The notes below the pieces were generated by a model, which was not told the DNA's origin, ran no database searches, and saw only the letters and a list, made by a program, of their open reading frames with translations. A DNA stretch of 63,273 bases, the filler included. It is 4 parts of 4 records of this genome, joined end to end, with 100 filler letters (N's around TTAATTAATTAA, not from the genome) between each part and the next. Parts side by side here need not be neighbours in the genome. Positions count along the whole stretch, not along the records: positions 38,881 to 56,029 come from SRR2962707_3219; 3 more parts are not named here. One strand, given 5' to 3'. Shown one piece after another: positions 35,784 through 61,170 of this stretch. Positions within the stretch are counted from its first letter, which is position 1. Every line of letters starts with the position of its first letter. The position numbers were made by a program, and so were the translations under genes.

Positions 35784-35883
35784 ATTTTCTGCCTCAAAAC
35801 GATACAAATATAGATTCGGAGACGTGCAACTGCCTTGAAACTGCCCCCGCGTTAACGATTTGTTAGCGGATAGGAAAAAATCG

Positions 35884-35907
35884 CGCATACCCCCATTTGG
35901 GTATGCG
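35884..35907. promoter_or_regulatory. Inverted repeat between the LuxR-hydrolase and the autotransporter (operator or terminator)
   Basis: CGCATACCC-ccattt-GGGTATGCG. Confidence 0.5.
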
Positions 35908-35927
35908 GTGCGTTATTCGGGTAAATT

Positions 35928-37679
35928 TTAGCGGTTATCTGCGCTATGCTTAACGGCGTCTAAGACGTCAGCCCAATGGCTGTAAATGAGCATCTGGCCT
36001 GCACCTGGCACGACTTGAATGGTGCTATGTGGGACAGCATCCACAAAATCATACGAGCGGTTTATAAAGACAATTCCATCAGCATCGCCATGGATAATTC
36101 GTATAGGGCGATTGATCCGGCGTGCTTCCTCGCAAAAATCAATGACAACCAACTCAAATTCACGGCACATCTGATCGACACCCTGCTTTAGAGCCTCAGC
36201 GGAACTATCGCATACCCATGCAGCAATTTCAGGTGTGCTTTCAAAAGCTGTGACATCCCCTGGACTTTCGCGGCACATCCAAATGACCTGCTTTTTTGCA
36301 TCACCGCGCATAAACAAGCGCTGCATTGAACGCAGAAGAATTGCGCTAACCTGCGGCAGACTTTGCACGAGTTTACAGATGAGACGCTGCGCGGGCGGCA
36401 TGACCTCGATATATTCTTTTCGGTAAATTGGAGCATATGAGACCGAAATAAAATCCGCCACTTGATCTGGAAAAAGACTTGCAAACCTGAGCGCAAATAT
36501 TGAACCGATTGATTGGCCCACAAGGATCGCTTTTGATATTTTGAGTTTTTTTAGAACTGCGCGATAATCACCTGCAATAGCATCAAGCATCTGCTCCCCA
36601 TTGATATTGGGGATTAAATCAGAATCGCTATAGCCAGATCGGTGGGGCACTATGATCCGCAACCCCAAAGAAAAAGCACGTGCGATTGCCTCTTGATGCA
36701 TTTCAGCGCCATAAGGTGTGTTGTGGAAAACTAAAACCGGCATGCCGGTTAAATCTCCATATTCAAGATATGTTAATCGGCGACCATCACCTAGAACAAA
36801 AGACTTTTTACTGTCGGCAGCATGTGCATCTTTTGCCAAAGCATTGACCGACTTCTGTGTGCTTGATGCCAATAAATAACCGTAGGCAAAGCCACAGATA
36901 AGACGAACCAATTGCGGGATATCATCCGAATTGGTTTTTCGTCTTATCGATTTAATTTGAGTGCGCACAGTTTGCAGCGATGTATCACGCAATGCAGCAA
37001 CGTCATGCGGACGCTTTCCATTAGCGATGAGGGCAGCAACCTCAACCTCAGCTATGGTGAGTTCAAAGCGCTTTCTAAACAGCGCCAGAGCACCCGTATT
37101 GAAGCCTAAATCGATTGCTGTAACGAAGAAAAAATTTCTGTCATTTGGCGATTGACCTAACAGTTCTACTAAAACCTCTCCCTCTAATCGCTCAATGAGA
37201 AGGGTTTCGAATTCACCGTAGATCGGACCGCTATCATCCAACGCAATAATGGAACTAGGCTCGGAAGATGACTTAATGAACGAATAGATTTTATCTGTCG
37301 CCTCTTGGCCAAGCGCCTCACCAAGTGGCCTTGGAGGGCCTTTTAAGAAGGCACGCGCCTTTTCATTAATTGCAACAACCTGAGCACGTGAATTGATGAT
37401 TGCTGCCATGTTTGGCGCGGCGCTAAGAAGCAATGACGCTTTGGATTGTGATGCCGTTTCATCCTTAAATTTTATTTGCATATCCTTGGCTAATTGAAGG
37501 TGCATAAGGAAGTCTGGATCGTTCGCAAAACCAAGCGACGAATAAGCTTCGTCTAATTCTGACGGCGATAAGCCAAAAAGCGCCTCATCAATTGCCTGCA
37601 ATTTATCGACGAAATCTTCACCTGGCAAAGTGGCGGAATATACAGCCGTTATAATTTTATTTTTGATATCCGCCGGCAT
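35928..37679 (-). CDS. LuxR-type HTH / alpha-beta hydrolase fusion regulator
   Basis: HTH LTIAEVEVAALIANG...SLQTVRTQIKSI; hydrolase motifs DGRRLTYLEYG, GQSIG, IHGDAD and GAGQ. Confidence 0.88.
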   Translation of the reverse strand: MPADIKNKIITAVYSATLPGEDFVDKLQAIDEALFGLSPSELDEAYSSLGFANDPDFLMHLQLAKDMQIKFKDETASQSKASLLLSAAPNMAAIINSRAQVVAINEKARAFLKGPPRPLGEALGQEATDKIYSFIKSSSEPSSIIALDDSGPIYGEFETLLIERLEGEVLVELLGQSPNDRNFFFVTAIDLGFNTGALALFRKRFELTIAEVEVAALIANGKRPHDVAALRDTSLQTVRTQIKSIRRKTNSDDIPQLVRLICGFAYGYLLASSTQKSVNALAKDAHAADSKKSFVLGDGRRLTYLEYGDLTGMPVLVFHNTPYGAEMHQEAIARAFSLGLRIIVPHRSGYSDSDLIPNINGEQMLDAIAGDYRAVLKKLKISKAILVGQSIGSIFALRFASLFPDQVADFISVSYAPIYRKEYIEVMPPAQRLICKLVQSLPQVSAILLRSMQRLFMRGDAKKQVIWMCRESPGDVTAFESTPEIAAWVCDSSAEALKQGVDQMCREFELVVIDFCEEARRINRPIRIIHGDADGIVFINRSYDFVDAVPHSTIQVVPGAGQMLIYSHWADVLDAVKHSADNR

Positions 37680-38189
37680 TTCTTATTCCTAGCGGAAAGA
37701 TATTTGCGCCAATTTTATCGGCAAGAATATAAACACAAATCAAGTTATAACAAGCAGAGATATAAGCTATCTGTTCCCAGCGGAGGGATTATAAATTGAT
37801 GGAAAAATGTCCGTCCCAACCTTCAGTATGCCGCACACAAAACTAAAAGCTAAAGACTGCTTTAACATTTTATCTGAAGCGATATCTGGTGCAAGTGAGG
37901 CACAAACGCTGCACTGGTATTTCAAACTTTTTTCCAACTCAAAGACACAAAAAGTGGGCAAGGCGATTAGAAGTCCAAGCCGGTAGAGCAGAACGAAAAC
38001 CACACCGCTGAAACACGCCTTGCCTGCGCTCACCGCCACACCTCGCACCAAAAAGGCTGCCCCCAATCCTTGAAAAGCAGACCCAAACCTGCGAGCCTAG
38101 CAGTAACCAAACATTACTTGGGACATGTCGGCTTAGATTTCACGAGGATATCAAGCCTGCAGAAATAAATATAAAATGAGGGGATAAAT

Positions 38190-38780
38190 ATGACAGAAAC
38201 GTCTGCTGATCATGGTATACCGGCACCGCAAGGTGTCTCGGAAATCATTGATACGGACTATGAAATTGGTCAAGACAACAAGGATGGCGCAGTGGGCCCC
38301 TTTGGTTTTGACATCCATAATCCTGTATTTGCAATCTCGGGAGCTGCAATTGTGGCCTTCGTATTTTTCACATTGGCTTTGCCAGATCAGGCATCGAGCA
38401 TCTTTAAGGCCATGTTCGATTTTGCGACCAAGAACTTCGATTGGTTCCTGATCGGATCAGCCGATATCGTGGTGATCTTCGCTTTGTTTTTGATCGTTTC
38501 GCCCTTTGGTAGCATTCGCCTGGGCGGGTCAACCGCATCGCCGGACTATACCTATATTGGCTGGTTCTCAATGTTGTTTGCCGCGGGCATGGGCATCGGG
38601 CTTATGTTTTACGGTGTGTCTGAACCATTGTCCCACTTTTCGTCCTCAATGGGCGGCGCTGTGTCTGATGGTGGTCTGCGGTCTGACTGGGCTCCGCTGA
38701 CCGGCGCTTTGGATGATCAGTCCGGTGCCATTCGTCTAGGCATGGCCGCTACGATTTTCCACTGGGGTCTGCACCCTTGG
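38190..38780 (+). CDS. BCCT family betaine/carnitine/choline transporter (3'-truncated)
   Basis: WFSMLFAAGMGIGLMFYGVSEP and FHWGLHPW motifs. Confidence 0.93.
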
Positions 38781-38880
38781 NNNNNNNNNNNNNNNNNNNN
38801 NNNNNNNNNNNNNNNNNNNNNNNNTTAATTAATTAANNNNNNNNNNNNNNNNNNNNNNNNNNNNNNNNNNNNNNNNNNNN
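38781..38880. other. Artificial contig spacer
   Basis: N-run with TTAATTAATTAA at 38825-38836. Confidence 0.98.
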
Positions 38881-41800
38881 TGCACCAGCGCCTGCACCAG
38901 CGCCTGCACCCGCAGCTTTGTTCGCGCCAGCAACGGGCTCAACACTTTTGCAGCCACCTGTATCGCCAGCAACTGCGTTGCAACCTGGTGCACTTGCGGC
39001 TGCGCATGCTCCGGCGTCGACAGAGCAGAACGCCGCGGGCGCATCGGTAAATCCTTCTGCCCGCTTTGCTACCGCTCTCTACGACTTTGTACCAGAGGCG
39101 GATGTCGAGCTGGGATTCAAGGCTGGTCAGCGTCTGACCGTTCTCAGCTTTGTGGATGACGAGTGGGCGATGGGAGAATTGAATGGGGCTACTGGCGAGT
39201 TCCCGCGCGCGTTTGTGAGAATCGAGGAGGGTCCTGGACCAGCTGCAATACTTGCTCCGGCACCAGCACCAGCACCGGCTCCAGCACCCGCTCCTGCACC
39301 TGATCTTATCGGAAATGTTTTTGACGACCTGGACTTTTCCACCCCAACGCCATCGGGTGCAATCACAGGCACACCAGCTCCGCTGTCAGCGTCGAATGCA
39401 CAGCAGCAAGCAACGCCGCCAACCTCAGCTATTGCTGCTCAGGAAGCAGACTTATTTTCTGCATCCACGATTCTGCCACCGACCGTCCCTGTCATGCAAG
39501 TTGCAGTGAAGAAAGCTGCGCCCAAGTATGCGATTGCGCAATATGCTTTTTCAGGACAGCCGCCTGACGAGTTGTCATTTAATGAAGGAGACGTTATTGA
39601 GGTTGTGCCGCCTCCAGTAGGTGTGCCAGAGGATCCTGACTGGATGCTAGGAGCTATGAACGGTGCCACAGGCTATGTTCCCCGCGCCTACGTCGTTGTT
39701 CAAGAAAATACTGGCTCTTCAGAAAACGCGCAGGCCTCATCAGAGCAAAAAATGCCCCCTCCCATGGTTCAATCCTATGCAAAGTTTGTCGACGAGAAAG
39801 TATCAGAAGACCCAGGCCAATCATTCTCTGTTCAACAGGCTGCTGCAGCTGCGATGAACGCGCTGCAATTAGAAGGGGTTCCAGTGCCAACGCAGAGTAT
39901 TCCAACCCGCTTCCTGGATCGGTTCGAGCCCATTTGGCGTTTACCGGCAGCGTCGCAGCTTTTGGCAGTTGACTGCGTCAATCCGAATTTGACTAACGGA
40001 AACATCAACATCGAAATTGAGTCACTCGTCCCTTCGATCACCTTCATTGCCGAACTTCTCGGCGGAGTTGAATGCTCAATTACCCAGTGCAATGAGGCTG
40101 CCTGGGACCTTCGAACACATTTACAAGACGCTGCTTACATGATCGAAAAGCTACCCTGGAATACGAACGATGATACGAAGCTGTTGGAGTTTTTGTCGAG
40201 CGTTACGCAGGTCGTGACACAACTGCGCGTGGACGACATTACAATCATTCCTGCTGGCTGGCTCTCTCCAAAGTCTCGGCATCTTATTCTGTGTGTTTTG
40301 GCTCGAAAGCAGACCGGGTACGTGCGTCCAGTGTTTGGTTGGTTGCACGATTCTTTTGTGCAGTGTGAGGTGAATATCACCATGTGGTCACTGCTTTCGC
40401 GACAGGTATACGCTGACAGTGTGCAACACAGGCAATGGGCTGGAGTATCATGCGTCTGGCGTTGACCCAGACACATCACTAGACACAAAGGGCATGATGC
40501 TGGTTATCGATGACATTCCGCAGTACAAACTCAGCGACAGTGCTTTTTGGTTTTTCACTTCACGGATGGTGACTTACATGCACCCCAAAAATAAAGCGAA
40601 AACCTTTTACCAGAAACTGTTGCCTTACCTCAACGACAAGCCGCTGAAAGCGAACATCCAGAGTTACGATTTTCACATGCCGATTCCTCACGGCCGAGAC
40701 CGCCGCCTCCTGCACTGCGTGATGCTCGCTGTGCTCCGTGGCTTCACTGAAAAAGGACTTTCGCCTGTCAGTATCCGGTGCAATGACGTGTTGCTGCAGG
40801 CAAGGCTTGGCGTTTTGGACGGCTCACTGACCCTCACCACCAATGCGAACTTTTGTGCATGCAGTCGCAGGTGAAGTTTATGCGATACATGATCCAGTTA
40901 CGTGCATGTCAGCACATGCAGGGTGAGCTAGCCATCATTAAGACGATGACAACGCATGACATTGAATGTGTGCAAGCGTCTCTTAAGACGCTTGCGCACA
41001 CAGCTCTTGAGCTCGCGCGAGAATATAAAGCCAAGGCGTACGTTAGCTCGCGTTTGACCTGATCTGAGTATGCTGTTGAACGTTTGGTTTGTGACAGCTT
41101 ACCGAAGCCAGGTGCGGTTGTACGCTGTCAGGGACGATGACATCGAGGAAGACCTTGCCCTGGCGGGTGCCTGCATTCGAGACACTGAAAAGCAATTAGC
41201 GTTTCACATTGGCAATGTCATACTTCCATCTCAGCCTGTTGTACGCATCGACATTGCGAGCAAGCCAGACACTGCTGGCACCGCTGTTCCGCCCAATTTT
41301 GACCGCTTCCGCTGGGATGAATCCATTGAGCACCTTGCTGGAGCGGCACCGATTCCACCGATAATGCGACCACTTGATTTCACATTGGTTCAAGATTCTG
41401 TGGAAACTTTCAACGATGTTTCCAACGTGCTACGCCACACAGTACATCTGTGCACACTGCTCTCGAACCAGCGCAAGTATGTGAAAAACACCTATATGCT
41501 GCGTGTGTCGTTGGTGCAGCATGTTTTTACGCATGTGCTGCCCCTTCCACTGCCGCACAATCACCCGGACAAAGCCACAAAGTGCTTTTGGTCGAGCCGT
41601 GCCAAGGGGATGCGCTACGAGACACAGGTGGACATTTTGCGCCTGCTCGAAATGGTCGCCAGGCACTTTGCAGCTGCATCACTTTCGCTGCGCATTACGC
41701 GGTCCTTCGACGCTGCTAGAGTTATCACGATGGCATGCATGGTAAGTTGCTGACACGGCATTAGTCAATTCGAAGTGGCACACCGTTGATTATGAATGTG

Positions 41801-44800
41801 CGAAGCGTGTGGAATCGTAATCCTGTCTATTCTTTGCTCTGCAGACCACTGTGGCAGATGCGACCCTCCGTTTGCAAGCATGCGACATTCCGTCGCAGTT
41901 TTGTGCTCACTACTCAGGCACTGCACCTGGTCCAGTACGGCCTTTTGGAATTGAGATGCGAAAGTTTGGGTCAGAGAGTGCCAACCTCAAATTTACAGCC
42001 GCGGCGTTGACAACTGCGAGAACGCAGGTGTTGGATTACTTCACTCAGCAACGCAAAGACATTGCCGATGATCATATATTGTACGTTTGTTTAGTATATG
42101 TCGCGCGAGCCACTTCGCAAAGCACGTTCTCGGCCTTGTGTTCGTTTTGCGTTGACACTTTGATAATGTTCGTGTTGGCCAGGTACCGCTTCGAAGTTGC
42201 CAAAGGATTCGGAGACTCGGAACGTCGGCTGTATGAACAGCTCTGCGACCAGATCGGCTTTGACAAAAACCCAGAAATCCTCCCATTGTATATGACGGGC
42301 GAAGACTCTGTGCTCATCGACAATTACCCCGAGATTGCTTTCTTCCGAGACATTGTGTTAGTTTCGTTGGTCTAGTGGCACAATGCTGGGCTTGGAGGGG
42401 GGCAAAAGTTCACAATGACTGAATGTCTTGGCGCAGGTACCTCTTCAAGATGATGATGGCCCCAACATCGGACATGTTACCAGAAATCAAGTATTGGACC
42501 TACAAGGATGCCGCGCTGAAGTGGTCGTGGAAAGACAAATCAACCAAAGAAACCCGCGCAGCCGCGCAGATTGTTGGAAAACTTAAAGTCGATGGCTTTG
42601 GGGGGCGTATGCGCATTCTCGGGTTTGTGACAACTATCACTGCAGCTCGCATGTGGATACAGCACCTCACCAGCCGGCTTTGGAATGACAGAACCTTGTG
42701 CTTATCGCCCGCCAAAAATACTTGTTCTGGGTACACTGCAGATACGACAAAAAAGCACACGATGCTGCAATTGAAGAGAAACTACAGGCTGCACAGGAGC
42801 GCAAAGCAGCAAGTGCCGCAGCGTGGAAGAAGAGAAAACCGCTTTTCAAAAGATTCGTCTCTCGGTTTGCAGGTTTGGGGCCGAAGAAAGCTGCTCCCCG
42901 CGCGGGTCTCTCAGGAGCCAATCCAAGTGAACTCCTTGATCATGACGTTGAAACAGAAGAGGACATTCTACACGTGCGGCATTTGCCAGACTATGACGGT
43001 GCTCTCAACGCACAAAGCTTAGAGCTTCTTTCGACGTTCGTGCATTTGGCTGCCAGACTGAACAATACACCACTTTGTGGTTTTCACACGAATTTACGCC
43101 CTTGTGTGCGGGACCAACTTCCTTTGATAGGTATCTGCTTGCCCCGTACCTTCGCATTCCACTTGTCCTTGCCTTTTTCTCTGGGGCTGAGCATATTCGG
43201 GCACTGAAGCATCCGATGATGCAAGAGGTTTTGGACTCTTGCCTATTTGAGCCAGGCGATTGGCAGCCCGACTACAAACCGCAAGTGCCGAAGAGCATCC
43301 CTGTGTTTGACCGTGATTCACTCGCAACTCCGCTCGGCCTGTTATTCAATGAACTGCATCACTCACCCGACATCATAATCGATTCAGTGGAGAAGATGCT
43401 CGACTATGTACTTGATTTGGACACCGGGAGGTACAACGAGAGCTCCGCTGGCCTGACTTTTTACGTGCTGCGGCTTGCTGTGCGAATTGAGGAGCACATT
43501 TTCTTCATGACACGTCACTACCGCTGGGCGCAGGAGCGTCAGGCAGAACTTGCCCGCAGATCTGCCGCTGCTGCTGCCTTGGCCGCCGAAGCCGAGGAAG
43601 CTCAGCACGATGGGAACAAATCTAAGGCTGATGGCTTGCCGTACATGAAATCTAAATGGCGCACACACGTTCGCGGCCTGCGGCTTGACACCCAGTTTGT
43701 CGGTCAGGACGAAGGCATGGTTGAAATGGATCCAGCTCTTGACGACATGGATGACCTTAGCGTTGCGCAAGTGAATTCAAAGCAGGGTCAGCATAACTAC
43801 GATAGACTCGAGGAGTCCGCACGTCGCATACGAACACTTCTGGACGGGACCGCATGCAAAATGCTGGAATCATGGCTTGTCCACGCAAATCGGAACAATG
43901 ACATGCTTCTCGAAGCGTGCCTCATTCATGCACACCTGGCCTATCTTTACAAGAACGTGGAGCCAGAACAGCTGAACAAGCACGTGGTATCGATCCTGCT
44001 TTCGTCTCATGTCTTTCTCACCGCGTGCTATCGCTACAACGCAGACGTTCTTCCCGAGAAGCTCAAGGGCGCCCGTACGAGCGACGCTGTCGCTGGTGAC
44101 CCCGAGAAAGCTTTCGAAGCGGAGGATGAGGTGCAGGAAGAGGGTGGCGGGCTAAAGGGGGCAACTTCACCCAAAACCCCAAAGTCGCCAAAGAAAGATA
44201 AAGGTATTACTCGCGATTCGCGGCTGGACTCGACTGCGAACTCTGAGCTCCAAATCCCCCAGACAGAAATGTTTGATATGTTTCAGGCACACCGCTACAA
44301 GCTACTCCACTGGATGCGAGAAAATGTCGAAGAGGCAAACGAAGTCATGGAAAGCGTTGTGCGTGTTGTCACTAGAACTGGAACGCGAGAGGCTCCCCGT
44401 GGAAAAGCAATGTACAAACCGCGCATGTGGGTGGAGTTAGAACCCTTGCGCGGAATAGGCCGATTTGTGCCGGACACCGAAGCAACACCAGGTGAACAGC
44501 GAGAACGTCGTGAAGCATCATCTCCAGAAAAGGATACTTCTGTTGAACACGAAGAGGGTGCCTCGTTCGGTAACGGTGACATGGATGGTTCTGCACTGTT
44601 TGAAGAGAAGGAATTGGATCCTGTCTCAGGGAAGGATCTGAGCCGGTACGATATGAGTCAGTCTTTCGAAGAGTGGTACCGCGAACTGACAACACAGAGT
44701 GTGGACACAGAAATTAACATTCAAATTGGCGAGTTCACGCTCAAGAAGCATCGCATGCAAATTTTGGAGGCGGCGTGGATGAGATTTTTGGACTTTGCGC

Positions 44801-47800
44801 TAATATTCGGTCACAAAGAGGATAGCGGAGTCAGTGGTCTACAGTCTGCAGAGGTCCAGCATAAGCGACATCGCAAGTGGGTCCGTCTAGTGGGTCGGCG
44901 CCATGATCTTATATACTGGGATGCAGATTCGCGGGCGGTTGAGGACTTTATGGGCAAGCCAGGGCGTATTTTTCCTCGCGCAGTCAATCGCGAGGAACGA
45001 TGGTGCTTGGACGTGGCGCAAAATTTCATCGAGTTTCATTTCCCTGGTATGCTGGACTGTTGGTTTCTTCTAGGACTGCGTGCACCTTCCGTTGAATGTC
45101 TGACTAAGTATGTGTATGTTTCCTAATGGTCGCTGCAGGTACCCAATTTATCATGCAAGACACCGCCCGCAACGACGCAACGCGCCCTGGAGAGGTATTT
45201 TGCTTAATGTCAGGAGTCGTCAACAAGTATAAATATCGAACTCCCGAATCGATTGCCAAGGCAGAAGCTGAACGTGAGAAGCGGCAAAAAGAGATTCGCA
45301 AAAAGGAGATGGCTAGGCAAAAAAAGAATGTCAAACGAGGCCGCCGAGGTGAGGCATCAATTCCTGCATTGGCATCCGATTCCGACATGGACGACATTTC
45401 CGAATACATCGAGGAAGATACGCAAAACCCCGTCGTCAAGGAAATTATGGTATTCCGCGATCCGCCAGTCATTCACGTTCACGACGTCATACACAATGCC
45501 CGCCGGGCGTATCGTACGCTGGTCTATACCTCGGAAACGACTTTTTCCCTTCGTTGCCTGGGGCATGGGCGAGTGAGAGATGCAACCAAGGAGAACAAAA
45601 GTCGGAAAGCAAGTCAAGAGCGCGACACCGGCGCTCGTGATCGCTTTCGCGAAGCTGATGGTGATGGTGGACGCAGTGGTTTCAGTAACAGCCGCCGCAA
45701 TCTGTCTGCGGGCCGACTGTGTGGTGGAGGAATGGAAGCTGGTGAGCCCAATGAACCGCCGTTGGAACCATCAACGTTGCCTTCTCTTGCCATTGAACGC
45801 ATTCTCACGGCCGAACTGGGACGTGAACGATTCCTCCCTGCTCGTTTCTTGTACGGCATCGTTCCTGACGCATTGTTGAACGCTTACAGCTTTTGGAGAA
45901 ACAAGGAGGGGCCTTTCATTACCGGATACCCCATTCTAAGCAAACTGGACACAGCACAGACAGTGTGCGTTGTCTTAGTTTGAAAGCCCCCATGATCACA
46001 CTGCATCAAGAGCCGCAGTTCGCTCGGCCTGACAGCCAATCTGATGTTTGTGGTGCATCGAATGGATGGCGTTGTATAGGTATCTAGTCCGCATCGTCTT
46101 GCTCAATCAAGGTCGCAGTGACGTGCGTGGGTATTCTGCCCCGTTGTGTAACGGGGCATTGCTGCGGTATGCGTTGCGTGAAGACATTGATTTTCCAGCA
46201 ATGCAAAAACTAGACGGAGAAAGCAATGGTCAAATTGTATTTGCCCATCATATCGACCGAACGAAGCCGGTGGAGATGTGCGTTTCTTTTGCGTTTACAC
46301 GTCAATGTGGAACAGTTTGTTTGATTGGATTTGCGGGTCACCATGGTTGTTGCTTGCAGATATCTCAACCCGCTGTACGCGCTTCCGAATTCCGAACTGA
46401 AGACCGTGTCGAGCGTTGTTCGTCGCATTGAGAACCTGTCTCATATTCTCGTTTGGGCTCGAGCAGACCCAGAACTTGTGCAGATAATCGATCGCATTTG
46501 CACTGTTTCTTCAACCTGGGACCCGAACGAGCAAAATAGTCTCGATGTGAAAGGCGCCGCGACTTTGTCCCTGGGCGGGGCCACTGAAGATGTTTCTGGT
46601 GGCAGAGGCGAAGGGGATCGAGGTGACCAGCCTTCAGAGGAGCCCTCGGTCGGCAATGAATCAAAGCACCATCGTGAGCTCGAGAAAGCGTCGAAGCGTA
46701 TGATGGAGTTGTGTTCGCACCTGCAGGTTTGGAAAGTGGATCTGCCTCGGCTTTTCCTATCGTTCACCATGAAGCAGGTGGGTGACTTCCGTGCTCTGTA
46801 CTCCGACAACCACGACGGCCTACGCGTGTTGACAGACAGTGCGCAGGTCGCAGATGCCGAGGCGCTTATGTCAGACCTTCGCCAGTCAATTATCATGGAA
46901 AACCGCGACAATGATCTTTTTGTCATCACCTCTGCCACAGCAAAAATCCTACGCCCTGCCGTCCAAAACAAAGAACAAATCGTTGCCGGTGTGACGTTTG
47001 ACCGCACGAACAACGAGTGGATTGCCAATCTTGGCACGGAGCCGCGGCACTACAATTACCCGTTGCACTTCTCCCGTGGTTTCTTTTTTACTCAAACATT
47101 GGCATCCTCGCTGTTTATGCTGGTTGTCGCTTTTTACAACCGCAATTACGCACTGGTGTGCCGCCTGGCGGACACTTGCGTTAGTGACGTCACGCTTTCT
47201 GCAGAAGAAGACCAAATTTACAAGCTGCTCGAAAACACCAGCGATGATCACCACCCTGACTCTCATGCTTGTCGGCTCAAAATAACAATTGCTACGGAAG
47301 GAAGCCGGCGTGTAATGCCAATATTCTGGAACATCACGGAACAGTGTTACCGCTATGTGCAGAAAATCAACCGCATTTCCGCGGCCTGTCGCCTTACCAT
47401 TGATGAAGAACTCTACATGTTGGGTCAGTGCGCCACTAACAAATTTGACCTCTTGAAGAACCGGCTGCAGTTTTTGAAGGCTGTCAAAAAACTAGAAACT
47501 GACGGAGACCCCGAGGCTACGATCACGCTAACAAACGCCCCTGTCATGAAATGCCCCAGAGTTGTGGATTTTGATGACATTCGCGATGATTCTGTGCTGA
47601 AGATGGACTCCCTTGTGGAAAAGGCCAAGGAAATCGTCACAGCTGTCACTGGTGTGTCAACCGTGAAACCTTTCAAGGTGCGCAAGGACGGTTCCATCGA
47701 GGGCGGTGAAGGCACAGCCGCAATTCATGCCTTGAATGAGTGGCTGTATGCTGGGATCAGTCTTGCACCAAAAGGAATGGGGATGAGCAAAGACGCACTT

Positions 47801-50800
47801 GGCTTTCTTTTCTTTTACGAAGTAATGACGCTAGCGTACCCGCGCCCGCGAATTTTGTCCAGTGATACCGGATACAATATTGCCTGCTTGCTCATTCGTT
47901 TCATCTCACCCTTGGTAACACGTGGGCGATCTGTATTGATGTCGATTCTTCGAATCCTGTCTGCGAATCCTGACATCGCGGCTGACCGTCGGCTACCGCA
48001 ACTTGTTGACGATCGCAAGGTCAAGATTGGTCTTGTCTTGAAGGGGCAGAAAATGGTCCGTGTGCTGCTCGAAGGCATAAGTGAGTTTTTGAAACAGAAG
48101 GCTGAATCCGGCGAACTTCGGTGGCCGACAGATAGTTTGCAGAAGAAGGACGGTGGCGGTGGCGGTGGTGGCGGTGACGAAGGCGAAGAAGAACGGATAG
48201 TAGATTCTGATGACAACGCCGACGAAGGTGCTGAGGTAGGCGATGGTGATGCGGTGGCATTTGTCGAGCCAGGTGCATATGAACTTAACTACGAAGTTCG
48301 GCCGCTTCAAATCCTGTCTGCACGACGCTCCCACTTGTGGGTGTTGCCCCCAAAAGCAGATATGATGCAGCTCGAGCGTTGGGTTTTCCGCAACCCTCAG
48401 CTCAAGCTCAATTTGGATCAGTTGAACGACTTTGCTGGTCAACCGCTAAATGCGATTGGTCTAGACCGCTTCATTGAACTCGGACTCGCCCCTCAGAATG
48501 ACCCAAATCGGCGCCTTCCGCTTGTCGGGACAACCTTACCTTTCGATGTTAGTCAACACCGTCAGTCGCAGTCGCAAGTTGCTGAAACCATGATCAAGCG
48601 GTTTGCGGACGAGATTGCTTTTTATGGGAACAGTGTGAATTCGAAGCGAACGAGTTTCGTGCGGAATCTCACACCTGGTGATGTTGCGAAGCTTATCGTT
48701 GCCCCAGATGGTCCTGAGTTCTCCCGTGCCAAGGCCCAGATTGATCAGTTGAGAGATGCATTGTTGAATCAGCTCCAGCAAGACATGCATACTACCCGGT
48801 CCGTTCTTGTTGGCTGTTTAGAGCACTGCAATGGAGTGCATGAGCGGTTCAATGGGGACATGACAGAAATTTATGGCCGGCCATTGACGAACACGTTGCG
48901 CTTCGGATACCTACTGGGCCGATACGCTGGTGTCAATCCGAAGCTTGACCTTGAGCTCTTGATTAAGCTTCATCTCACATCTGGCGAATTCACAGACCAT
49001 GTTCGCTACGTGAATCCGTTCCTGTCGCCACAAGCTGCAGCTGCTGTCGAGCAAATGCTGGTGACAACAATGTTACACATCAATCGTATCGGCCAAACGT
49101 ACCGGGCGCTTGCGGCTGCGGGACAAATGACTCGATTGCTAGACAAACTTCGGAGTGGCAAACAGACCCCACTGGCAGATGAGTTAGACCGATCCGCTGC
49201 CAACCTCGTCAGTCAAGTGACGTGCCGCCGGTTTTATGCTACGGAAGTTGCGACAACAGATGCGACTGGGCAACCAGACACGTGTTTACGCGTAGACCCG
49301 CGGTTTTTGGCGTTCGAGTTCATTCACAACATCATTTTGCGTGGTTCCCAAATCGAGCTCATTAACAAATTCATGGAAGCTGCCAACCGGGGAGGGTCAA
49401 TGTGCCACCAGATGATTATGGGTGCTGGAAAAACGACTGTTGTTGGACCAATGTTGGCTTTGCTCACCGCGGACGGAAGCACACTGGTGGTCCAAGTTGT
49501 CCCACACTCTCTGCTTGAAATGTCACGTGCTGTCATGCGGGAGAAGTTTTCTGCGGTTATTAAGAAGGCTGTGTACGTGATGTCCTGTGGGTCAATGGGT
49601 CGTGTTGCCTCGGATTACTGTGTATTGTGCCAAATGATTTTGTCATGTTTTGTGCCAGGTACACGTTTAAATTCGACCGTTTCATGAAAGTCGACAGCGC
49701 TGTCATCGATAAACTGCGCAAAGCACGAGACACAGCGTCGGTGGTGTGCGCCAATCCCACATCCATAAAGAGCTTCTACCTGAAGTTTATCGAGATCATG
49801 CATTACATTGATCAGACTGTTGTGAGCGCTAAAATGGACAAACAGTTGGAAGCGTCCAAGTCATTATTTTCAAGATTTAAGGTACAGACACGCAACCAAA
49901 TCACACATGTGTTGCCTTTTTTGTTGTGAAGCATGGCATTGTTTTGGAACACGAGTCTTGATCATTAGCCAAATTGGTTTCCAGGCTTTATTTTCTTTGA
50001 AAGCGCGCGACACAAAGAAGCTGACCAAGGAACGAATTCAAGACTTGCAGTCACAAGTTGAAGTCTGCATTCAGATTTTTCAGATACTACAGGCCGGCGT
50101 GCTGCTGCTTGATGAGGTCGACGTCATTCTTCACCCTCTCAAATCTGAGCTAAATTGGCCTTTGGGACAAAAGTTCCCACTCGATTTCACCGTCTCTGCC
50201 AATGGCCTGGATGATGGACTCCGTTGGCAAGTGCCGTGGCACATTCTTGACGCGCTGTTTTATACAGATGAACGTCGAATGACTGTTGATCTTTCCGATT
50301 CGAAAGAAGCTGCGGATTTGCTACAACGCATTGCAGCAAAAATCGACGAAGGCGCCAGCATCAATTATGTTCAGCGTACGCCACATTTTGTTATATTGTC
50401 CACCAAGTTCTACCGAAAGCAGTTACTTCCTCTCCTTGCGCAGTGGACCTTGCTGTGGGCCTCTCAGCATATAGCTGCGAAAGATATCAAGGAAGAAGTG
50501 CTTCTCACTTATTTGGTTCATGGGCCGAATCGTGATCGTGCTGGTGCAGACCAGATCAATCGTGAACTCGGCGACGATCAGATGAAGATGCTGAACCTAT
50601 GCCGGGACTGGCTGACATCTGTTGCGCCATTTGTCCTTGCCAAAATCAATCGTGTCAAGTTTGGTCTTCTTTCACCAGCAGATATTGAACGTAACCTGAA
50701 GGTAGACCCGCTGATGAGCAAGAACCGCAAGCTCACCGCTGTTCCGTTCGTCGCCAAGGACGTGCCTTCGCAGTCGTCTGAGTTTGCTCAACCAGATGTG

Positions 50801-53800
50801 GTGATTGGGCTTACCATCTTAGCGTATCGCTACGAGGGCCTTCGTCGCATGGACTTCGACAACGTCATCGAATCCCTTTTCGACCAGCTCAACGCTGAGC
50901 AAGGCCCATACAGCAAACGCCCAGCATGCAAAAAATTTGCCCGTCTGGTGCATTTTTCTGGTGGTCAAGTCCGAGGCTACTTTCGGCGTGCGTACAAGAA
51001 TAGTGAGGAAAAGGGCGAAGGCGATGTTGAGCGCGAAGAAGCTCGGGCTATGCTCGAGCGCAGGGTTGAACTTGAGAGCATTCCCATGGAGTTCGTGCGC
51101 CTAGTTGTCAATGAGAGACTGATCGTGCGCGAACGTTGCACGTTTATGGTCGCTCCTGCTCTGACACTTTGTTTCGCCACTTACGTGCAGGTACGCTGCT
51201 ATATTTCAAGATATCTGGCCGTTGCAGCTCATTGACTACCGTGACAATGAGCAAATGGAACCATTGTACTATCTCCTGCGCAAAAACCCGGAACTGATTC
51301 GAATGTATGTCCATCTGCACTTCGCCAACCGCCCTGCCGTTGCTTCCACCATTAATTTGAGTCGTGAACGTGCACATTTCTTCATGGTTTCCGTGTTGGC
51401 CTTTGTGCAGGTACTTGTTCGAGTACATTTTCCCAGAAACAATGCAGCATCAAACTCTGAAACTGGCTGCGTCAGGTCAGGAGCTGGGCGGCGATGTGCT
51501 GTTTCCACGTCGAATGGGTTTTTCTGGAACACCGTCCGATCTCGTCCCAACGGAACTAGGTGGGTGCCAGTATGAGCGGGGGACGGATGGCAAAGTTCTT
51601 CATTTTGTGACGACTCCAGAAATCATGTCCTACGAAAAGATTTCGCCAGGGTGGACCGTCACAAGCTTGTTGGACAATATCGCCAACAGTCCATTCAAGT
51701 GAGTTATGCGTTTCTGCGTTGGTAAATATCGTGCCTCAAATTTGTAGGAATAAGCTGTTGACGAGTCTGTTGGTGCATTGCAGGTATTTGGCTCTCATTG
51801 ACACAGGAGCTCTTATTACAGGATTCACCAACAAGCAAGTTGGAGAATATCTTCTTCGCAACGGTTTGGCTCACGTCAAAGGTGTTGTGTATCTTGATGA
51901 GGATGACTGCAAGTGTGTGCTGCTTCGCAGAGGATTTAAAGTGGTCGCTCTTGACAAATGTGGATTGGGCAAAGCTGAGCGGTTTACGTTCTACGATCAA
52001 GCGCACACTACTGGCATGGACATAAAGCAAGCCATAGGGGCAGTTGCATGCGTCACTTTAGGCAAAGACATGACTTTTCGTGACTATGCACAAGGCACTT
52101 TCCGCATGCGGGGCATCGGAATTGGGCAAACGTTGCGACTTCTAATCATCCCAGAGGTCCTCCAACTTATTGAGGAGAATGTTGCGACAGGAGAACGCAA
52201 AACTGTTGCCGACAGAGCGGCATCATTCCGATCACTGGTCGACGCAGGCCGCCAGGAAGATGCCACGCGGCAGATGCTTCGAGATGTTGCAGCGTGGCTC
52301 ATCCTGAATCAAATGCGGTCCGAGAAAATCCAGTTCAATTTGCTTAGTCAGCAAAACCTCCACAACATTTGGCGGAAACGCGCCTTTCGAACCTTGCAAA
52401 AGCACTGGAAGGCAGTGGCACCACCTAAAGGGTTCCTACAGAGCGAAGATACAAGTATCGACAAAGAATTCCTCTCTGCCTGCGTCAACGTATTCCGGAA
52501 CCGAATCGACCATGATGTCGAAAACTGTGTCCCAGTGAATATTCCTCATGTTCAGAAACTTAACGACGACCGCGCAGCCCATGAAGCATTTCTGCAGACC
52601 GCGGACGAAAAGCAAACTGCTGAGCAGATTTTGCAGGCGTTGCAATATGCAACCAATGCCGGCACCAAGCTTGCTGCGCGTCAGCGTGAAGCTGCTGCAG
52701 CCGCGTCTGACGATGCTGAAGACAAATCTGAACTAAACTTTAGCAGCGAGCAAGTCCAGGAGCAGGAGCAGGAGCAAGAGCAGGAACAAGAACAGGAGCA
52801 AGAACAGGAGCAAGAACAAGAAGTTGTCGAGGAGCCTCCTGTTTATGAAAAGCGGAACTACTCACGTGATGATGAAGATCCTGTGCCGTGGCTCCCTGAG
52901 TCGCTGCGATTTTTGCCTTCTGTGGACCAACAAGGCTTCTATCCATTGTCGGAATTCAAGGTCTCAAAAAATCTGAAAAAAATGACTCAATGCCAGATGC
53001 CCCCAGCTGTGCATCTGAGTCGCAATTTCTTCAAGCCGAAATGGTTCAAGGCACATCGCCGCATCAAGAACGTGATCATGATCTTTGAGTACGCTCCATC
53101 GCTTCGAGATGCTGTGAAGGGCAGCAAACTTGCCAAGCTGGCGTCGCAGCGCCTGACTCCTACGCAAATGCAAAAGATCAAACTCGCGTTCAACCAGTTT
53201 GACACCAACCGTACTGGAGCGCTAAGTCGCCGCCAAATGCGGTCGGTAATTGGTGCTATGGATGTGTTGATCAAGAGCGAAGAAGAGCTAAACGCCATCT
53301 TTGATTCCATTGACCAAGACCGTTCCGGCGACATCACCCTGGACGAAGTCAATGACATGTTTATCAACCAAACTTACACCCAGCGCCACTTTGGGAAATA
53401 CGTCGTTGCGCTGTCACTGATTGAAGCGGAGTCTTTGCGACGCGTAATGCATATTCGGAAGAACCGCCCGCTGATTCCTGGGGGCGATGTTGTTGGCCAG
53501 TTGCGCGTGAACAATGGGCCGGTTGTGGACTCCACAACTGACTTTTTACCAACGCCGGAGTACCAGTTGACGTCGTGGCTTCAATGTTTCCGTTTCTTTG
53601 ACAGTTGTTACCAGTACACGCCACGGGAGTTGAATCTGCTTTTGCGTGTGCTCCAATCCACAGACTGCAAAAAGCGTTTAGACTTCTTCATGCAAGTGCG
53701 CGCATGCCGTCGAAGGCAACAAAATTCAGTCGAAACGCAAAGTATTCACCGCCTTTTCACTACTCCCGACGAGTTTTACCTACTCAACCAGCGTGCGCTG

Positions 53801-55097
53801 TACAGTCAGATTCGTGAGCGATTGGAGGAACGCGGACTTGGCATTCGCGACGCCTTCATTGCCTTTGATTACAATAATGATGCCATTCTGACTTGTTCTG
53901 AACTGTACGGTGGACTGGAGTGGCTGGGCCTGCGCCTCACACCGGAGGATATTTACTCAATGGTTCAGGACATGAACACGAGCCAGAAAGGCACCATCTT
54001 GTGCGTTACTTTGCTTTTTGTGTTATTAGCTGCTGTCTGATTATTCCGCTTCCTCCACGAAAGTCATGTGCGACGTGTGCTTGTATTCGCCTTTGTCGGG
54101 AACAGGTACAAAGAATTTAAGCAAGCTCTCAAGGATCCATATGCAGATGAAAATGCCCCGGACCGTATTGCTGCAGTCGGTGTGTTTGACAAAGTTCGCA
54201 TCGAGCCCAAAATGATCGTGGAGTTGACAGATATTGAGGATGTGCCCGAGGACACGGAGCCGCTTCCTGCCGAGGCAGTGAAGAAAATAAAGTTGAAGAT
54301 GCAAGTTCTGAAGAAATTCTCAGCAGTTTGGGACACCACGAAAACTCGGTCGCAAAAGCCAATGTCCGTGTGGGCACCTTCAGCTGAGACCGGAATGTTC
54401 AAGAAAAATAGCCTTCGCATCTGCCTGGGCCATTTTGCAGTTGACGAAATCAAAGAGCCGTCTCGGGCAAAGAGCTTGAAAAAGCACCCGATGGAGATCA
54501 TTGAGGTTTCTGACACAGGCAGCAACCACCGCACTGTCGTCGATCAAGTGATCCGTGCGTTGTTCCCTTATCCGCTGCGCTTTCACCTCGTATGGAGTCA
54601 AAGCCGGAGCAAGAAACCGATGTATGTGTGGAGTGCTGTCCCTCCGAGCAATAAGTATGTGGCGATGGGCATGGTCGTCACCGACAATGAAGATCCCCCG
54701 AACCGTGACTGCATGCGTTGTGTGAGTACCCTGCTTTTGAAACCCACAGAGGACACACCAGTGAAAATTTGGGATGATGCTGGCGGCGGCGGAAGACCAG
54801 GGAGTGTCTGGTGCGTTGCCTCTCCACGTATGTTTTTGCGCGGTGGAAATTGTGCTCGTTCATCTCCCCGCTCATTGCGCTACCAATGTGTTTAGGTACA
54901 CAAGCAGCGCGAAACTACTGTATGCCCAAAAGGGGCTGAATGAGCCACAACGGAAACGCTTCTTTGACTTCAACTTTTCGAGGTTGATCCTTGGTGAGTC
55001 ACCGGAGATATTGAGCTTTTTCCAGCAAATGTACGAAACGCGCATGAAGCAGCAGGAGCAAGGACAGCAGCGGTCAAAAAACAGTTTCGAATTTTAA
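38881..55097 (+). CDS. Eukaryotic 19-exon giant protein (>4825 aa, 5'-truncated): 2xSH3 - DUF3638/DUF3645 SecA-like ATPase - EF-hands - Vps62-like
   Basis: GT..AG introns at 40318-40405, 40767-40864, 41038-41131, 41742-41844, 42081-42182, 42357-42436, 42623-42741, 43036-43130, 45047-45138, 45965-46079, 46278-46359, 49573-49658, 49882-49984, 51091-51190, 51305-51410, 51699-51783, 54001-54105 and 54811-54895 join the ORF fragments in frame. The spliced CDS is 14478 nt from 38882 to the TAA. Introns 2, 3, 5 and 7 are the least certain. Confidence 0.85.
39065..39700 (+). other. Two SH3 domains separated by an Ala/Pro-rich linker
   Basis: ALYDF...ELGF...EW...GEFP (about 39065-39225) and AQYAF...ELSF...DW...GYVP (about 39527-39700). 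Confidence 0.9.
49290..52130 (+). other. DUF3638 + DUF3645 P-loop ATPase region
   Basis: MGAGKTT (49418-49438), LLLDEVD (DEVD at 50111), AVPFVAKDVPSQSSEFAQPDV, GFSGTP, TTGMDIK and QGTFRMRG. Confidence 0.8.
52757..52822 (+). repeat. (CARGAR)11 encoding (QE)11
   Basis: Seen directly, with mixed synonymous codons. Confidence 0.92.
53190..54120 (+). other. EF-hand pairs
   Basis: DTNRTGALSRRQ, DQDRSGDITLDE, DYNNDAILTCSE and NTSQKGTILYKE (the last is completed by splicing intron 17). Confidence 0.8.
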
Positions 55098-55138
55098 TAA
55101 AATGTTGTGTCAGCTTGTTTGCTCGGTGCATAAATAAA
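55096..55138 (+). promoter_or_regulatory. Candidate polyadenylation signals
   Basis: AATAAA overlapping the stop codon and again at 55133-55138. Confidence 0.45.
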
Positions 55139-56029
55139 CCTATTCCCAAAAATATTCAAAAATTCCAGTTATGATTCAAATAATGCGTGCCTCGTGCATT
55201 GCAATGTCTCGTGGAGGAGCCAGATGTGCGCTTAGTATTTGGATGCTCACTATTGTCGCAAATCCACTATTCGTTGCCATAAAAAATGAGGTACAAACAG
55301 CGACGGCGTGCACGCCGCACCACAGGAGTTCCGTGCTTCTTCGACTTTTCCAGATCGCGCCTGGATCTGAAAGATCTGCTGTGACACCCTCAACCATGCC
55401 CACCCACACGGTTCTGCTTTCTTGCAATCTTCTTTTGTCATACGGTGATCGTCATAAGCGGGGTGGGGTGTTCGGTCGTCGCAAAAGTCCTACAAGGCTC
55501 CCATCGAACTCACTGTGGGCCAATCGCGACGAATCGAACAACAAACAGAATATTATTTATTAATAAAACAACGACAACTTGTTCTTTTTATTAAACTCAT
55601 CATTGGGTGTAAATGGACCGATAGTTCGGACAATACGTACGCTAGGAGGCGTCGAGCGTCGACAGTGCTATGTCATAACAATAACAACGTCGACACAGTG
55701 GAAAAACAACAAAGTAACGTGTTTGGAAGGACACCTCACATGTCAGTCAAAAGAGTGCAGTACCTGGTAGTTGCAATTCTATAAAGTTCTTCAACACAGT
55801 CCCGCATTGTTACCAATACCATCTGATACAGCGATCTAAACAGATACTTTAGCGGTGTGTCACGGCAGCCGCTCGCATCCCTGTGGCGCTGCATTTTCAT
55901 CTCGGTCGTTGTTGTCACTCACGCACACACACACACATTGCATACAACATACATAGCCTGCACAAGGCACCAACTCAGTCACGCTGCAATACTATTGACG
56001 TACGCTAAACTGTAGGATGAGTAAAGTCA

Positions 56030-56129: not shown

Positions 56130-57063
56130 GCTGAAACCGATGAACTGCCCCTGCCACGTTCAGGTTTTCAACCAAGGTCTGAAATCCTATCGGGATCTGC
56201 CGATCCGCATGGCGGAATTCGGTTCATGTAACCGCTATGAGCCTTCGGGCGCCTTGCACGGCATCATGCGTGTGCGTGGGTTCACCCAAGATGACGCGCA
56301 TATCTTTTGCACCGATGAACAAATCGAAATGGAAACCAAGAAGTTCATCGAATTTCTGGCCGGTATCTATGCGGATCTCGGCTTCCATGAATGGAAGGTC
56401 AAACTGTCGACCCGTCCTGAAAAGCGGATCGGAAGCGAAGAGAGCTGGGATCGTGTAGAAGCCGCGCTTGGCGATGCCTGTAAAGCCGCAGGGTATGACT
56501 TTGAACTCCAGGAAGGCGAAGGCGCCTTTTATGGTCCGAAGCTCGAATTCGTTCTGACCGACGCGATTGGCCGGGACTGGCAATGTGGCACCTTGCAGGT
56601 TGACCCCAACCTGCCGGACCGTCTGGATGCAACTTACATCGGACAAGATGGGGGCAAACATCGCCCTGTCATGTTGCACCGAGCCGTTCTGGGCTCATTT
56701 GAGCGTTTCATTGGTATTCTGATCGAGGAACACGCGGGCAAGCTGCCGTTCTGGTTGGCCCCGCGTCAGGTGGTTGTGGCCTCGATCGTTTCCGAAGCGG
56801 ATGATTTCGTTCATGAAACTGTTGCTGCGCTGCGCGCGGTTGGTGTCCGGGCTGAGGCGGATACGCGGAACGAAAAGATCAACTATAAGGTCCGCGAACA
56901 TTCACTGGGCAAGGTCCCTGTGATTTTGGCCATCGGTCATCGGGAAGTTGAACAAAGAACTGTCACCGTACGACGCTTGGGACAGAAACAGACTTCTGTA
57001 ACATCCCTAGAGGAAATCGTGAGCAGCCTCGGCAAAGACGCCACGCCGCCCGATCTTTTGTAA
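56130..57063 (+). CDS. thrS: Threonine--tRNA ligase (5'-truncated)
   Basis: [29 protein letters not shown] and [11 protein letters not shown] motifs. Confidence 0.97.
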
Positions 57064-57089
57064 CATTCCAGGACTGGAACGTTGATAAT

Positions 57090-57123
57090 AGGCCCCGAAA
57101 TGTTTCGGGGCCTTTTTCTTTTT
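57090..57123 (+). terminator. Intrinsic terminator after thrS
   Basis: AGGCCCCGAAA-tg-TTTCGGGGCCT followed by a T run. Confidence 0.9.
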
Positions 57124-57297
57124 CCTTTATTTACAAGGGTGCATACCCGGTTTGCAGCTCACGCAACCCTGACATGGACTGACGGCTCTGTGATGCACAG
57201 CCCTGTGAGTGGCTCAAAACGATGCGAGGCGTCACATTCAGGACATCGCCGGACAAACCCGGTGATCCAGTTTCAAACCACCTGAAAGGGAATTCAC

Positions 57298-57600
57298 ATG
57301 TCCATTACTTTGAAAACCGTTGCAATCGTTGGCGCAGTCGCAGCTTCAGTCGCTGCTCACGGAACCGTGGCTTCTGCACAGTCGCAGGAAAAGTGCTTTG
57401 GTGTGTCGTTGGCAGGTGCCAATGATTGCGCCGCAGGCCCAGGTACAACATGCGCCGGATCTTCCAAAGTTGACTACCAAGGCAACGCCTGGACATTGGT
57501 TGACGCCGGCTCATGCACCACAATCGAACTTCCCGCCATGGCAGATGGCAAGGCCCGCATGGGTTCGTTGGAAGCTCTTGACCGTGACCTTCCAGCATAA
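57298..57600 (+). CDS. DUF2282 bufferin-type (BufA1) RiPP precursor with signal peptide
   Basis: Signal ending in ASA, then [24 protein letters not shown]...WTLVDAGSC with 4 Cys. Confidence 0.93.
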
Positions 57601-57618
57601 GTCGACAGTAAAAATGAT

Positions 57619-57647
57619 CCATGGCACGCGACACGCGCGTGCCATGG
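57619..57647 (+). other. 12-bp perfect stem-loop downstream of the precursor gene
   Basis: CCATGGCACGCG-acacg-CGCGTGCCATGG. Confidence 0.8.
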
Positions 57648-57713
57648 CACATCTCAAGACGCGTCAGTCCCAGCTTAGATTTTGGGAATGGCCCCCAATC
57701 AAAGAGCCTTCCC

Positions 57714-58562
57714 ATGTTTGACGAAACTCGGTCTTTGCCACTGGCGCCCGGTGTTGGGTATAAACCCCAGCATTATTCCGCGATCATGCAAGAGGCACAG
57801 CCAGTCGAATGGCTGGAGATCCACGCCGAGAATTACATGGGAGACGGTGGCCGTCCTTTGGCTCAGCTCCGTCATTTGGCCGAACGTTTTCCAATTTCCG
57901 TCCATGGGGTAGGCCTTTCCATTGGCGGCGAAGGCCGTCTGGACCAAGATCATCTGGCACGCCTGAAACACCTTGTTTCATGGTTAAACCCAGCCAGCTT
58001 TTCTGAGCACCTTGCTTGGTCGACGCATGACAGCCATTTCCTGAATGACCTTTTGCCCCTGCCTTACACGGCCTCCAGTTTGACCCGCATCTGCAACCAC
58101 ATAGACGAGGTTCAAACGACCTTGGGGCGCAGCATGCTTTTGGAGAACCCCTCCAGCTATCTGGCCTTTGCCGAAAGCACCTATGAAGAACCCGAATTTC
58201 TGGCGGAAATCGCCCGGCGGACGGGGTGTGGCCTGTTGCTGGACGTGAACAATGTCTTCGTCTCAGCCACCAATCTTGGCTATGCGCCACAGTCCTATAT
58301 TGACGCCTACCCACTTGATTTGGTCGGAGAAATTCACCTTGGCGGGCATGATGATGACACCGATGACCACGGAGCGCCGTTGTTGATCGACAGCCATGGC
58401 CGCGAGGTCGCTGACCCGGTTTGGGCTTTGCTGGATTACACCTTGCGTCAATCCGGCAGCAAACCTTTGCTGGTCGAATGGGACAATGACGTACCCGATT
58501 GGCCAACCCTAGCCGCCGAAGCCGAACGTGCCGCCACGGCATTGCTTGAGGTGAGCGCATGA
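57714..58562 (+). CDS. DUF692 MNIO (BufB-like)
   Basis: [41 protein letters not shown] and VEWD motifs. ATG at 57714 is preferred because the 57621 ATG lies inside the hairpin. Confidence 0.95.
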
Positions 58563-59296
58563 CCTCACAAACCGAATTCCGCTCCGCTTTGCTGGATGCC
58601 ACAATGCCTGTTCCAAGCGGGCTGTTGGATGGGTTGGGCAACCCGGCCGGTGCCCGCTATTCCGTTTATCGCAACAATGTTGCCGTCAGCCTGACAGAAG
58701 CTTTGACAACCGCATTTCCAGTTGTTCAAAACCTGATTGGCGAAGAGAACTTTCAAAAGATCGCGTCGCTATACTTGCGTCAGGAACCGCCGACATCCCC
58801 TTTGATGATGCACTATGGGGCCGGATTTCCTGCCTTTTTACAAGATTTTGAGCCGTTGGCACATATCGGGTACTTAGCAGATATCGCACGATTGGAACAC
58901 GCTTTACGCCAGTCCTATCATGCAGCCGACAGCTCAGCAGCCGATCCGACCATCTTACAGAACCTGAGCGAAGACGCTCTGATGGCGTGCAAAATGCGCG
59001 TTGCACCTTCCGTCCGGGTATTCTCTTCCTCCTGGCCCGTCGTATCCATCTGGGCCTATGCCCGTGACCCAAGCGTGGGTCAGCCACCCGCTGTGCCGCA
59101 AGACTGTATTATCTTGCGACCTGAATTCGATCCGATGCCCCACATACTGCCAAATGGCGGTTTGGCCTTCGTTACAACGCTGGCCAAGGGACAAACCTTT
59201 GGCGCGGCGTTGACGGCCGCCGGTGATGGATTTGATTTGACCGCAGCCCTCAACCTTCTGCTGTCGCACGGCGCGATAACAGACATTCAGACTTGA
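58559..59296 (+). CDS. DUF2063 / BufC-HvfC-like partner protein
   Basis: [17 protein letters not shown]...[13 protein letters not shown] overlap with DUF692. Confidence 0.92.
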
Positions 59297-59307
59297 AAGG
59301 CCACACC

Positions 59308-60414: not shown

Positions 60415-60415
60415 C

Positions 60416-61168: not shown

Positions 61169-61170
61169 AC

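Follow-up and report, generated by a model that had tools for sequence, protein, structure and literature searches.

A spliced gene for a giant DUF3638/DUF3645 protein with a predicted SF2 ATPase motor and a candidate cysteine-protease-like head

Introduction

Few conserved proteins of protists and fungi are as large as the DUF3638/DUF3645 giants. The described systems with which parts of these giants can best be compared are SecA motors, DEAD-box helicases and a group of Legionella effectors. SecA motors carry a large insertion before motif III, and DEAD-box helicases are marked by the motifs DEAD, SAT and HRIGR (HRIGRxGR). The effector AnkH has, according to the available part of its report, a domain that resembles the clan CE protease XopD (Ulp1 family), with the triad H243/D258/C324 (PMC6712400), and the available part of the LegA15 report gives the triad H268/N290/C361 (PMC9757750). 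Here we describe a giant member of the DUF3638/DUF3645 family encoded in a window of 63,273 nucleotides (nt), by which we mean the whole stretch of DNA analysed, filler included. The giant gene fills the third of four joined contigs (38881-56029, ∼17 kb), which is eukaryotic and set apart by N-spacers. On balance we favour its reading as a single nuclear protist gene for a soluble DUF3638/DUF3645 protein of at least 4,825 amino acids (aa), predicted from sequence to be a two-engine machine that combines a motor with a thiol head. The original prediction for this gene had called such proteins functionally uncharacterised, and the literature searched agrees with it: no functional study was found there, the names occurring in passing gene-list mentions in the parts of the sources available, and DUF6606, PF12340, PF12359 and PF20255 were not mentioned.

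Results

The gene model was built from stop-to-stop frames, enumeration of GT-AG sites and tblastn of two relatives. The gene lies on the + strand, as do all its features given below, and occupies positions 38882-55097 with 19 exons and 18 GT-AG introns of 80-119 nt. Its coding sequence of 14,478 nt corresponds to 4,825 codons followed by a single stop at 55095-55097, so that the ∼19 open reading frame (ORF) fragments originally proposed to splice into one frame of more than 4,825 aa do form such a frame. Exons 1-5 are located at 38882-40317, 40406-40766, 40865-41037, 41132-41741 and 41845-42080; exons 6-10 at 42183-42356, 42437-42622, 42742-43035, 43131-45046 and 45139-45964; exons 11-15 at 46080-46277, 46360-49572, 49659-49881, 49985-51090 and 51191-51304; and exons 16-19 at 51411-51698, 51784-54000, 54106-54810 and 54896-55097. 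The contig end cuts the gene at its 5′ side: the frame is already open at the first base of the contig, and there is no Met upstream of SH3 domain 1. The protein is therefore at least 4,825 aa long. The original prediction had mentioned neither this truncation nor the conserved N-terminal head described below.

Two public runs of different studies, X1 (DNA, and possibly the origin of the contig) and X2 (for which the RNA label is a guess), were aligned to the contig. A single spliced X2 contig of 14,304 nt skips 15 of the 18 introns at the exact coordinates of the model, all of them GT..AG. One piece of the same contig, 51784-54000, is equal to exon 17, and introns 16 and 17 are thereby implied. 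Four further joints of the X2 contig are not among the joints listed, and intron 18 (54811-54895) comes from the model alone. An alternative donor for this intron at 54832, 21 nt downstream, is weaker and would add 7 codons, yet fits the length of the diatom homologue better than the donor at 54811. None of the splice joints was seen in the DNA run X1. An artefact, whether a chimeric assembly or a run of neighbouring genes mistaken for a single one, could be suspected from the origin of the contig in a mixed assembly, among bacterial contigs, and from the guessed label of X2. We hold this to be extremely improbable, since it is refuted by the spliced X2 contig, whose 14.3 kb run from exon 1 to exon 17 or beyond with nothing else in between; the stretch is moreover present in two runs of different studies, and it aligns collinearly with full-length giants from many eukaryotes. 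The locus is one spliced gene, and several separate genes are excluded.

The introns share a feature of their own. The downstream exon begins with RTAY at 14 of the 18 introns, 14 of the 18 are in phase 2, and the two coincide in 13, so that a single base separates the intron from the Tyr codon that follows. In exons, AG is followed by RTAY at a background rate of 0.0148 (binomial P ∼7e-23). A partial direct repeat is made up of the intron starts (GTRCGT) and the starts of the exons behind them (GTAC or GTAT), and in four cases the position of the X2 joint is ambiguous by 4 letters. The RTAY pattern could be the footprint of a transposon-derived intron ('introner') or an extended 3′ splice-site rule.

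A word-indexed search returned 128 relatives of 1,999-4,954 aa from many eukaryotic groups; names, domains and BLASTP comparisons refer to the 120 of them that are listed. Judged by its sequence, the giant protein is a member of a pan-eukaryotic, uncharacterised family, since its Pfam scores lie above the cut-offs (DUF3638, 55.3 bits against 31, followed by DUF3645, 55.7 bits against 25) and its similarity with the 128-relative set is collinear, extending in BLASTP against the listed relatives over aa ∼400 to ∼4500. Identity over the motor is 33-51% among relatives that cover it. A close relative, P0001, is 73% identical and partial; of the relatives that bear a name, the stramenopiles Ditylum and Ectocarpus come closest (33-49% identity). 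The UniRef name 'ubiquitinyl hydrolase 1' is attached to 19 of the listed relatives. The motor was also placed in a quick maximum-likelihood tree of 93 rows, from which 28 of the 120 relatives had been dropped for incomplete or over-long matches. This tree paired the giant protein with the SH3-bearing P0079 (95 in the Shimodaira-Hasegawa-like approximate likelihood ratio test, SH-aLRT). This pair falls inside a 36-row clade (SH-aLRT 97) with all 10 Vps62-bearing rows and with PH-, FYVE- and WW-bearing rows, and these clade mates have PH, FYVE or WW at the N-terminal end, where the giant protein has SH3. Paralogues bear accessions that we take to be UBA, zf-RanBP, WWE, MIB_HERC2 and AZUL domains; those of other clades are presumably UBA, zf-RanBP and thioredoxin-like domains.

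Pfam was run on the exon frames at E≤0.01. The domain order of the protein is SH3, SH3, a cysteine-enzyme-like head, ∼2,400 aa of conserved helical scaffold, a superfamily 2 (SF2) ATPase, an acidic tract, two EF-hand pairs and a Vps62-like domain. Each domain named in the original prediction (SH3, DUF3638, DUF3645, EF-hand, (QE)11 and Vps62-like) was recovered by Pfam or by motif position.

The SF2 ATPase module spans aa 3116-3930 (49295-52219, exons 12-17) and includes a helical insertion of ∼370 aa between motifs II and III. The DUF3638 match (Pfam PF12340, 49298-49572, E 7.3e-15) covers the start of RecA lobe 1, and the DUF3645 signature (PF12359, 50720-50815, E 3e-15) lies within the insertion. 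The five motifs follow in the order first proposed: Walker A, MGAGKTT, at aa 3157 (49418-49438); Walker B or motif II, LLLDEVD, at aa 3322 (50102-50122); motif III, GFSGTP, at aa 3725 (51517-51534); and, in RecA lobe 2, motifs V, TTGMDIK, at aa 3860 and VI, QGTFRMRG, at aa 3888 (together 52007-52114). The nearly invariant columns of the motor alignment are Walker A, DEVD (columns D217-D220), SGT (within G598-P603, also nearly invariant), TTGMD and Q..R.RG. The fold was predicted for the diatom homologue P0002, which is 49% identical to the giant protein over the module, from an alignment of 26 relatives and two exons of the giant gene, and the model reached a predicted local distance difference test score (pLDDT) of 76.2 and a predicted template modelling score (pTM) of 0.70. 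Foldseek of this model against the PDB gave 23 hits at E≤1e-3, and the 22 listed are all SF2 motors. As modelled, the motor region is a tandem RecA (SF2) fold, the fold that had been expected of it.

The proposed likeness to SecA held in part. The fold is SF2, and SecA 5eul_A has the best TM-score among the Foldseek hits listed; on the other side, Pfam recognised SecA_DEAD, PP_bind and SW in none of the exon frames (E≤0.01), and a comparison of the motor profile with 20 SecA sequences by hhalign, a weak test because of shallow alignments (effective number of sequences, Neff, of the template 2.2), gave a probability of 0.6% and E 0.09, over the P-loop only. A SecA-type polypeptide pusher, whose motor and insertion would clamp a polypeptide and move it at a membrane and whose head would be non-catalytic, is an alternative that we regard as rather improbable. 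The highest Z scores to the motor model, 20.0-20.1 over ∼320 residues, belong to the DEAD-box helicases DbpA, eIF4A and Dbp5, Z differences below 1 being treated as ties. Another alternative is an RNA or ribonucleoprotein remodeller, whose motor would be a DEAD-box-like RNA-dependent ATPase, whose head would be a binding module or pseudo-enzyme and whose scaffold would organise the ribonucleoprotein. It seems unlikely, though it deserves some weight. Pfam DEAD and Helicase_C have no match at E≤0.01 in the giant protein; hhalign against bacterial DEAD-box proteins (the 23 of 24 fetched that exceed 380 aa), again a weak test with shallow alignments (template Neff 3.4), reached 2.5%, over the P-loop only; and the accessory domains seen among the 120 listed relatives include ubiquitin-linked but no RNA-binding ones. 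phmmer of P0002 against the PDB returned 312 hits, of which the 60 listed are all of the calmodulin-type EF-hand, with no helicase among the matches listed. The motor is an SF2 ATPase of its own family, SecA-like in its large insertion before motif III and yet no SecA.

The second engine of the favoured two-engine reading would be the cysteine-protease-like head, which with its helical cap extends over aa ∼386-690 (40037-41231, across introns 1-3). It was modelled on the first 862 residues of P0024, with an alignment of 18 relatives and five exons of the giant gene (pLDDT 82.4), and the modelled fold agrees with the cysteine-protease-like type of LegA15 and AnkH. The head profile found 2,101 representatives at E≤1e-3. 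Three residues are putative equivalents of the LegA15/AnkH triad by spacing and secondary structure. His494 (40449-40451), the candidate catalytic His, lies in the motif NTGxGLxYH and is His in 35/35 and 150/150 rows. Asp515 (40512-40514), the candidate third member, is in a column with D in 52 and N in 42 of 149 rows (D/N in 94/149). Cys583 (40716-40718), the putative nucleophile, opens a helix and is in a column where Cys is the commonest residue (79/142 rows, in a profile built on Cys-bearing rows). The H-D/D-C spacing is 21/68 in the giant protein, against 22/71 in LegA15 and 15/66 in AnkH as given in the available parts of their reports. A nucleophile at the helix that follows the beta-sheet (D523-W527) was considered and rejected, there being no conserved Cys at that place. 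C583 was preferred to it on account of the spacing and of the long loop that precedes the Cys helix in AnkH, as the available part of that report describes it (PMC6712400).

Several observations weigh against a catalytic thiol head. In 35 unselected rows the C583 column holds Cys in 9, S/T in 13, A in 4, P in 5, N in 3 and another residue in 1, and the higher count of Cys given above comes from Cys-selected rows; the head thiol may thus be dispensable. The triad equivalence is drawn solely from spacing and secondary structure, the head profile had no hits among PDB sequences at E≤10, and both the head and the motor were modelled on homologues (P0024 and P0002) rather than on the spliced protein itself. 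As to the effectors, whose folds are the closest solved ones to the head, the AnkH authors, in the available part of their report, detected no protease activity in vitro (PMC6712400), and LegA15 is described in the available part of its report as a Cys-dependent GTPase (PMC9757750). A further cluster in the giant protein is better conserved than C583: C764, Q770, C808, W810, D865, R869 and H882 (41451-41910), each present in 30-35 of 35 rows.

For the head as a deubiquitinase the CE-like fold is the only pointer; no peptidase Pfam domain occurs in the stretch or in the precomputed Pfam lists of the 120 relatives.

The C764...H882 cluster sits in a confidently modelled all-helical domain, of which a structural search gave generic helical matches only. 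The cluster may bind a metal or form a second active site.

The remaining domains lie towards the two ends. SH3 domain 1 (39071-39205; Pfam SH3_1, family E 2.4e-20) and SH3 domain 2 (39536-39694; SH3_9, family E 2.9e-23) correspond to residues 79-123 and 234-286 of ORF 38837-40465. Behind the motor, the (QE)11 acidic tract (aa 4110-4131, 52757-52822) has a counterpart in the consensus of homologues, where an acidic tract is found at the same position. EF-hand pair 1 (53171-53362) was matched by Pfam EF-hand_7 (E 1.3e-14); its loop DQDRSGDITLDE agrees with what we take to be the consensus, and its loop DTNRTGALSRRQ ends in Q. EF-hand pair 2 (53867-54115) spans intron 17 and aligns with the calmodulin-like pair of P0002; against the same presumed consensus its loop DYNNDAILTCSE is near-canonical and its second loop degenerate. 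The paired match and the fit of DQDRSGDITLDE and DYNNDAILTCSE to the pattern agree with calcium sensors, which the EF-hand pairs are predicted to be. The Vps62-like domain (54290-54751; PF06101, E 6e-9 to 9e-9) scored 34.7-35.2 bits against a cut-off of 22.1, but as a partial match to profile positions 29-164 of 541 only. In a rough screen with a broad set of hydrophobic and small residues, no run of 19 or more was found in the protein, which is read as soluble for this reason.

Two side observations concern this part of the protein. In X1, one contig returns over the repeat that encodes (QE)11 after 13 intervening letters, and depth is ∼20-fold higher at this point; the repeat length may be variable or mis-assembled. 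The Vps62-like exon (54107-54808) resembles residues 382-465 of 6fbm_A ('Gram-negative insecticidal protein') weakly in sequence (E 0.005), which hints that PF06101 domains may have the same fold as the C-terminal part of that protein.

The window consists of four contigs joined artificially (1-28017, 28118-38780, 38881-56029 and 56130-63273). The joins are three pairs of 44-N runs with 12 bases between the runs of each pair, and the one spacer pair of the three that is displayed reads TTAATTAATTAA. The contigs that flank the giant gene are bacterial and densely coding. Over 1-38780 and 56130-63273 the bacterial contigs encode chemotaxis receptors, EAL/GGDEF proteins, a 1,406-aa autotransporter, a LysR regulator, threonyl-tRNA synthetase (ThrRS) and a BCCT transporter fragment. 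An MbnB/TglH/ChrH-type enzyme of ribosomally synthesised and post-translationally modified peptides (RiPPs) is found at 57618-58562. The nearest genome compared, G001, has 40% of the words of the stretch in common with it and matches neither the giant gene nor ORF 31692-35912 of the second contig (the sole ORF of the bacterial contigs so compared); the assembly therefore mixes organisms, and by this comparison the bacterial contigs may come from more than one. In the final ∼560 nt of the eukaryotic contig (55469-56029) the word depth in X1 is ∼3,962, against 39-50 over nearly all of the gene, and contigs of X1 and X2 end or run on there unlike each other. This segment is a high-copy repeat, which probably broke the assembly.

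Discussion

If the motor and the head act together as we favour, the DExD-type SF2 motor would use ATP to grip and remodel a substrate and would present it to the N-terminal thiol head (H494/D515/C583, in the clan CE order His-Asp/Asn-Cys), which would cleave or otherwise process it. A protein or ubiquitin-like conjugate is favoured as the substrate over nucleic acid since paralogues bear domains that we take to be ubiquitin-linked. The SH3 pair would dock the machine onto proline-rich partners and the Vps62-like end onto a membrane or surface, as suggested by the clade mates with PH, FYVE or WW and by the presence of all 10 Vps62 rows in the clade; the EF-hands would render its action calcium-dependent. 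A calcium-regulated, membrane- or endocytosis-linked role, by analogy with these domains, is plausible.

A bolder form of this proposal is that the thiol head is active and of the LegA15/AnkH lineage, in which case the protein would be a calcium-gated giant with two nucleotide- or conjugate-processing sites, the SF2 motor feeding or gating a clan-CE-like site. We think this quite improbable. Given the Cys-dependent GTPase activity ascribed to LegA15 in the available part of its report, such a head might act as a nucleotide hydrolase instead of cutting peptide bonds. Were it true, the giants would likely be the eukaryotic source of an effector domain taken by amoeba-dwelling bacteria. To what is known of DUF3638/DUF3645 giants the locus adds a transcript-supported full exon map, a member that retains all three candidate catalytic residues of the head, and a clade whose end domains (SH3, PH, FYVE, WW, EF-hand and Vps62-like) may point to calcium-dependent membrane work.

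The most similar layout is that of P0002 (Ditylum brightwellii, A0A6V2M4H7, 'ubiquitinyl hydrolase 1'), whose core, from the head through to the motor, is the same and which also has the acidic tract, the two EF-hand pairs and a Vps62-like domain at its C-terminus; the giant protein differs from it in having two N-terminal SH3 domains. SH3, EF-hand and Vps62 occur together in none of the 120 relatives listed. The SH3-bearing relatives P0016, P0017 and P0079 end 186-491 aa past DUF3645 and look cut short, and the combination may therefore be usual in the clade. A subfamily with PH, core, EF-hand and Vps62 (P0009, P0034, P0093, P0096, P0100 and P0104) belongs to the same 36-row clade and has the same C-terminal layout, with a PH domain in place of the SH3 domains of the giant protein; PH domains bind lipid, whereas SH3 domains bind peptide.

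More distant comparisons concern single parts. The Legionella effectors LegA15 (7kj6, 7xql), AnkD (7ew8) and AnkH (6mca) are 7-11% identical to the head, with no sequence-level match, and are proteins of ∼450 aa, whereas the head makes up a part of a chain of 4,800 aa without ankyrin repeats. The preprotein-binding, scaffold and wing domains of SecA motors (5k9t, 3bxz, 6itc, 5eul) were not detected in the giant protein, and the profile similarity of SecA to its motor is not significant. Against the motifs of DEAD-box helicases, finally, the motor of the giant protein has DEVD, SGT and QGxFRMRG together with the insertion of ∼370 aa.

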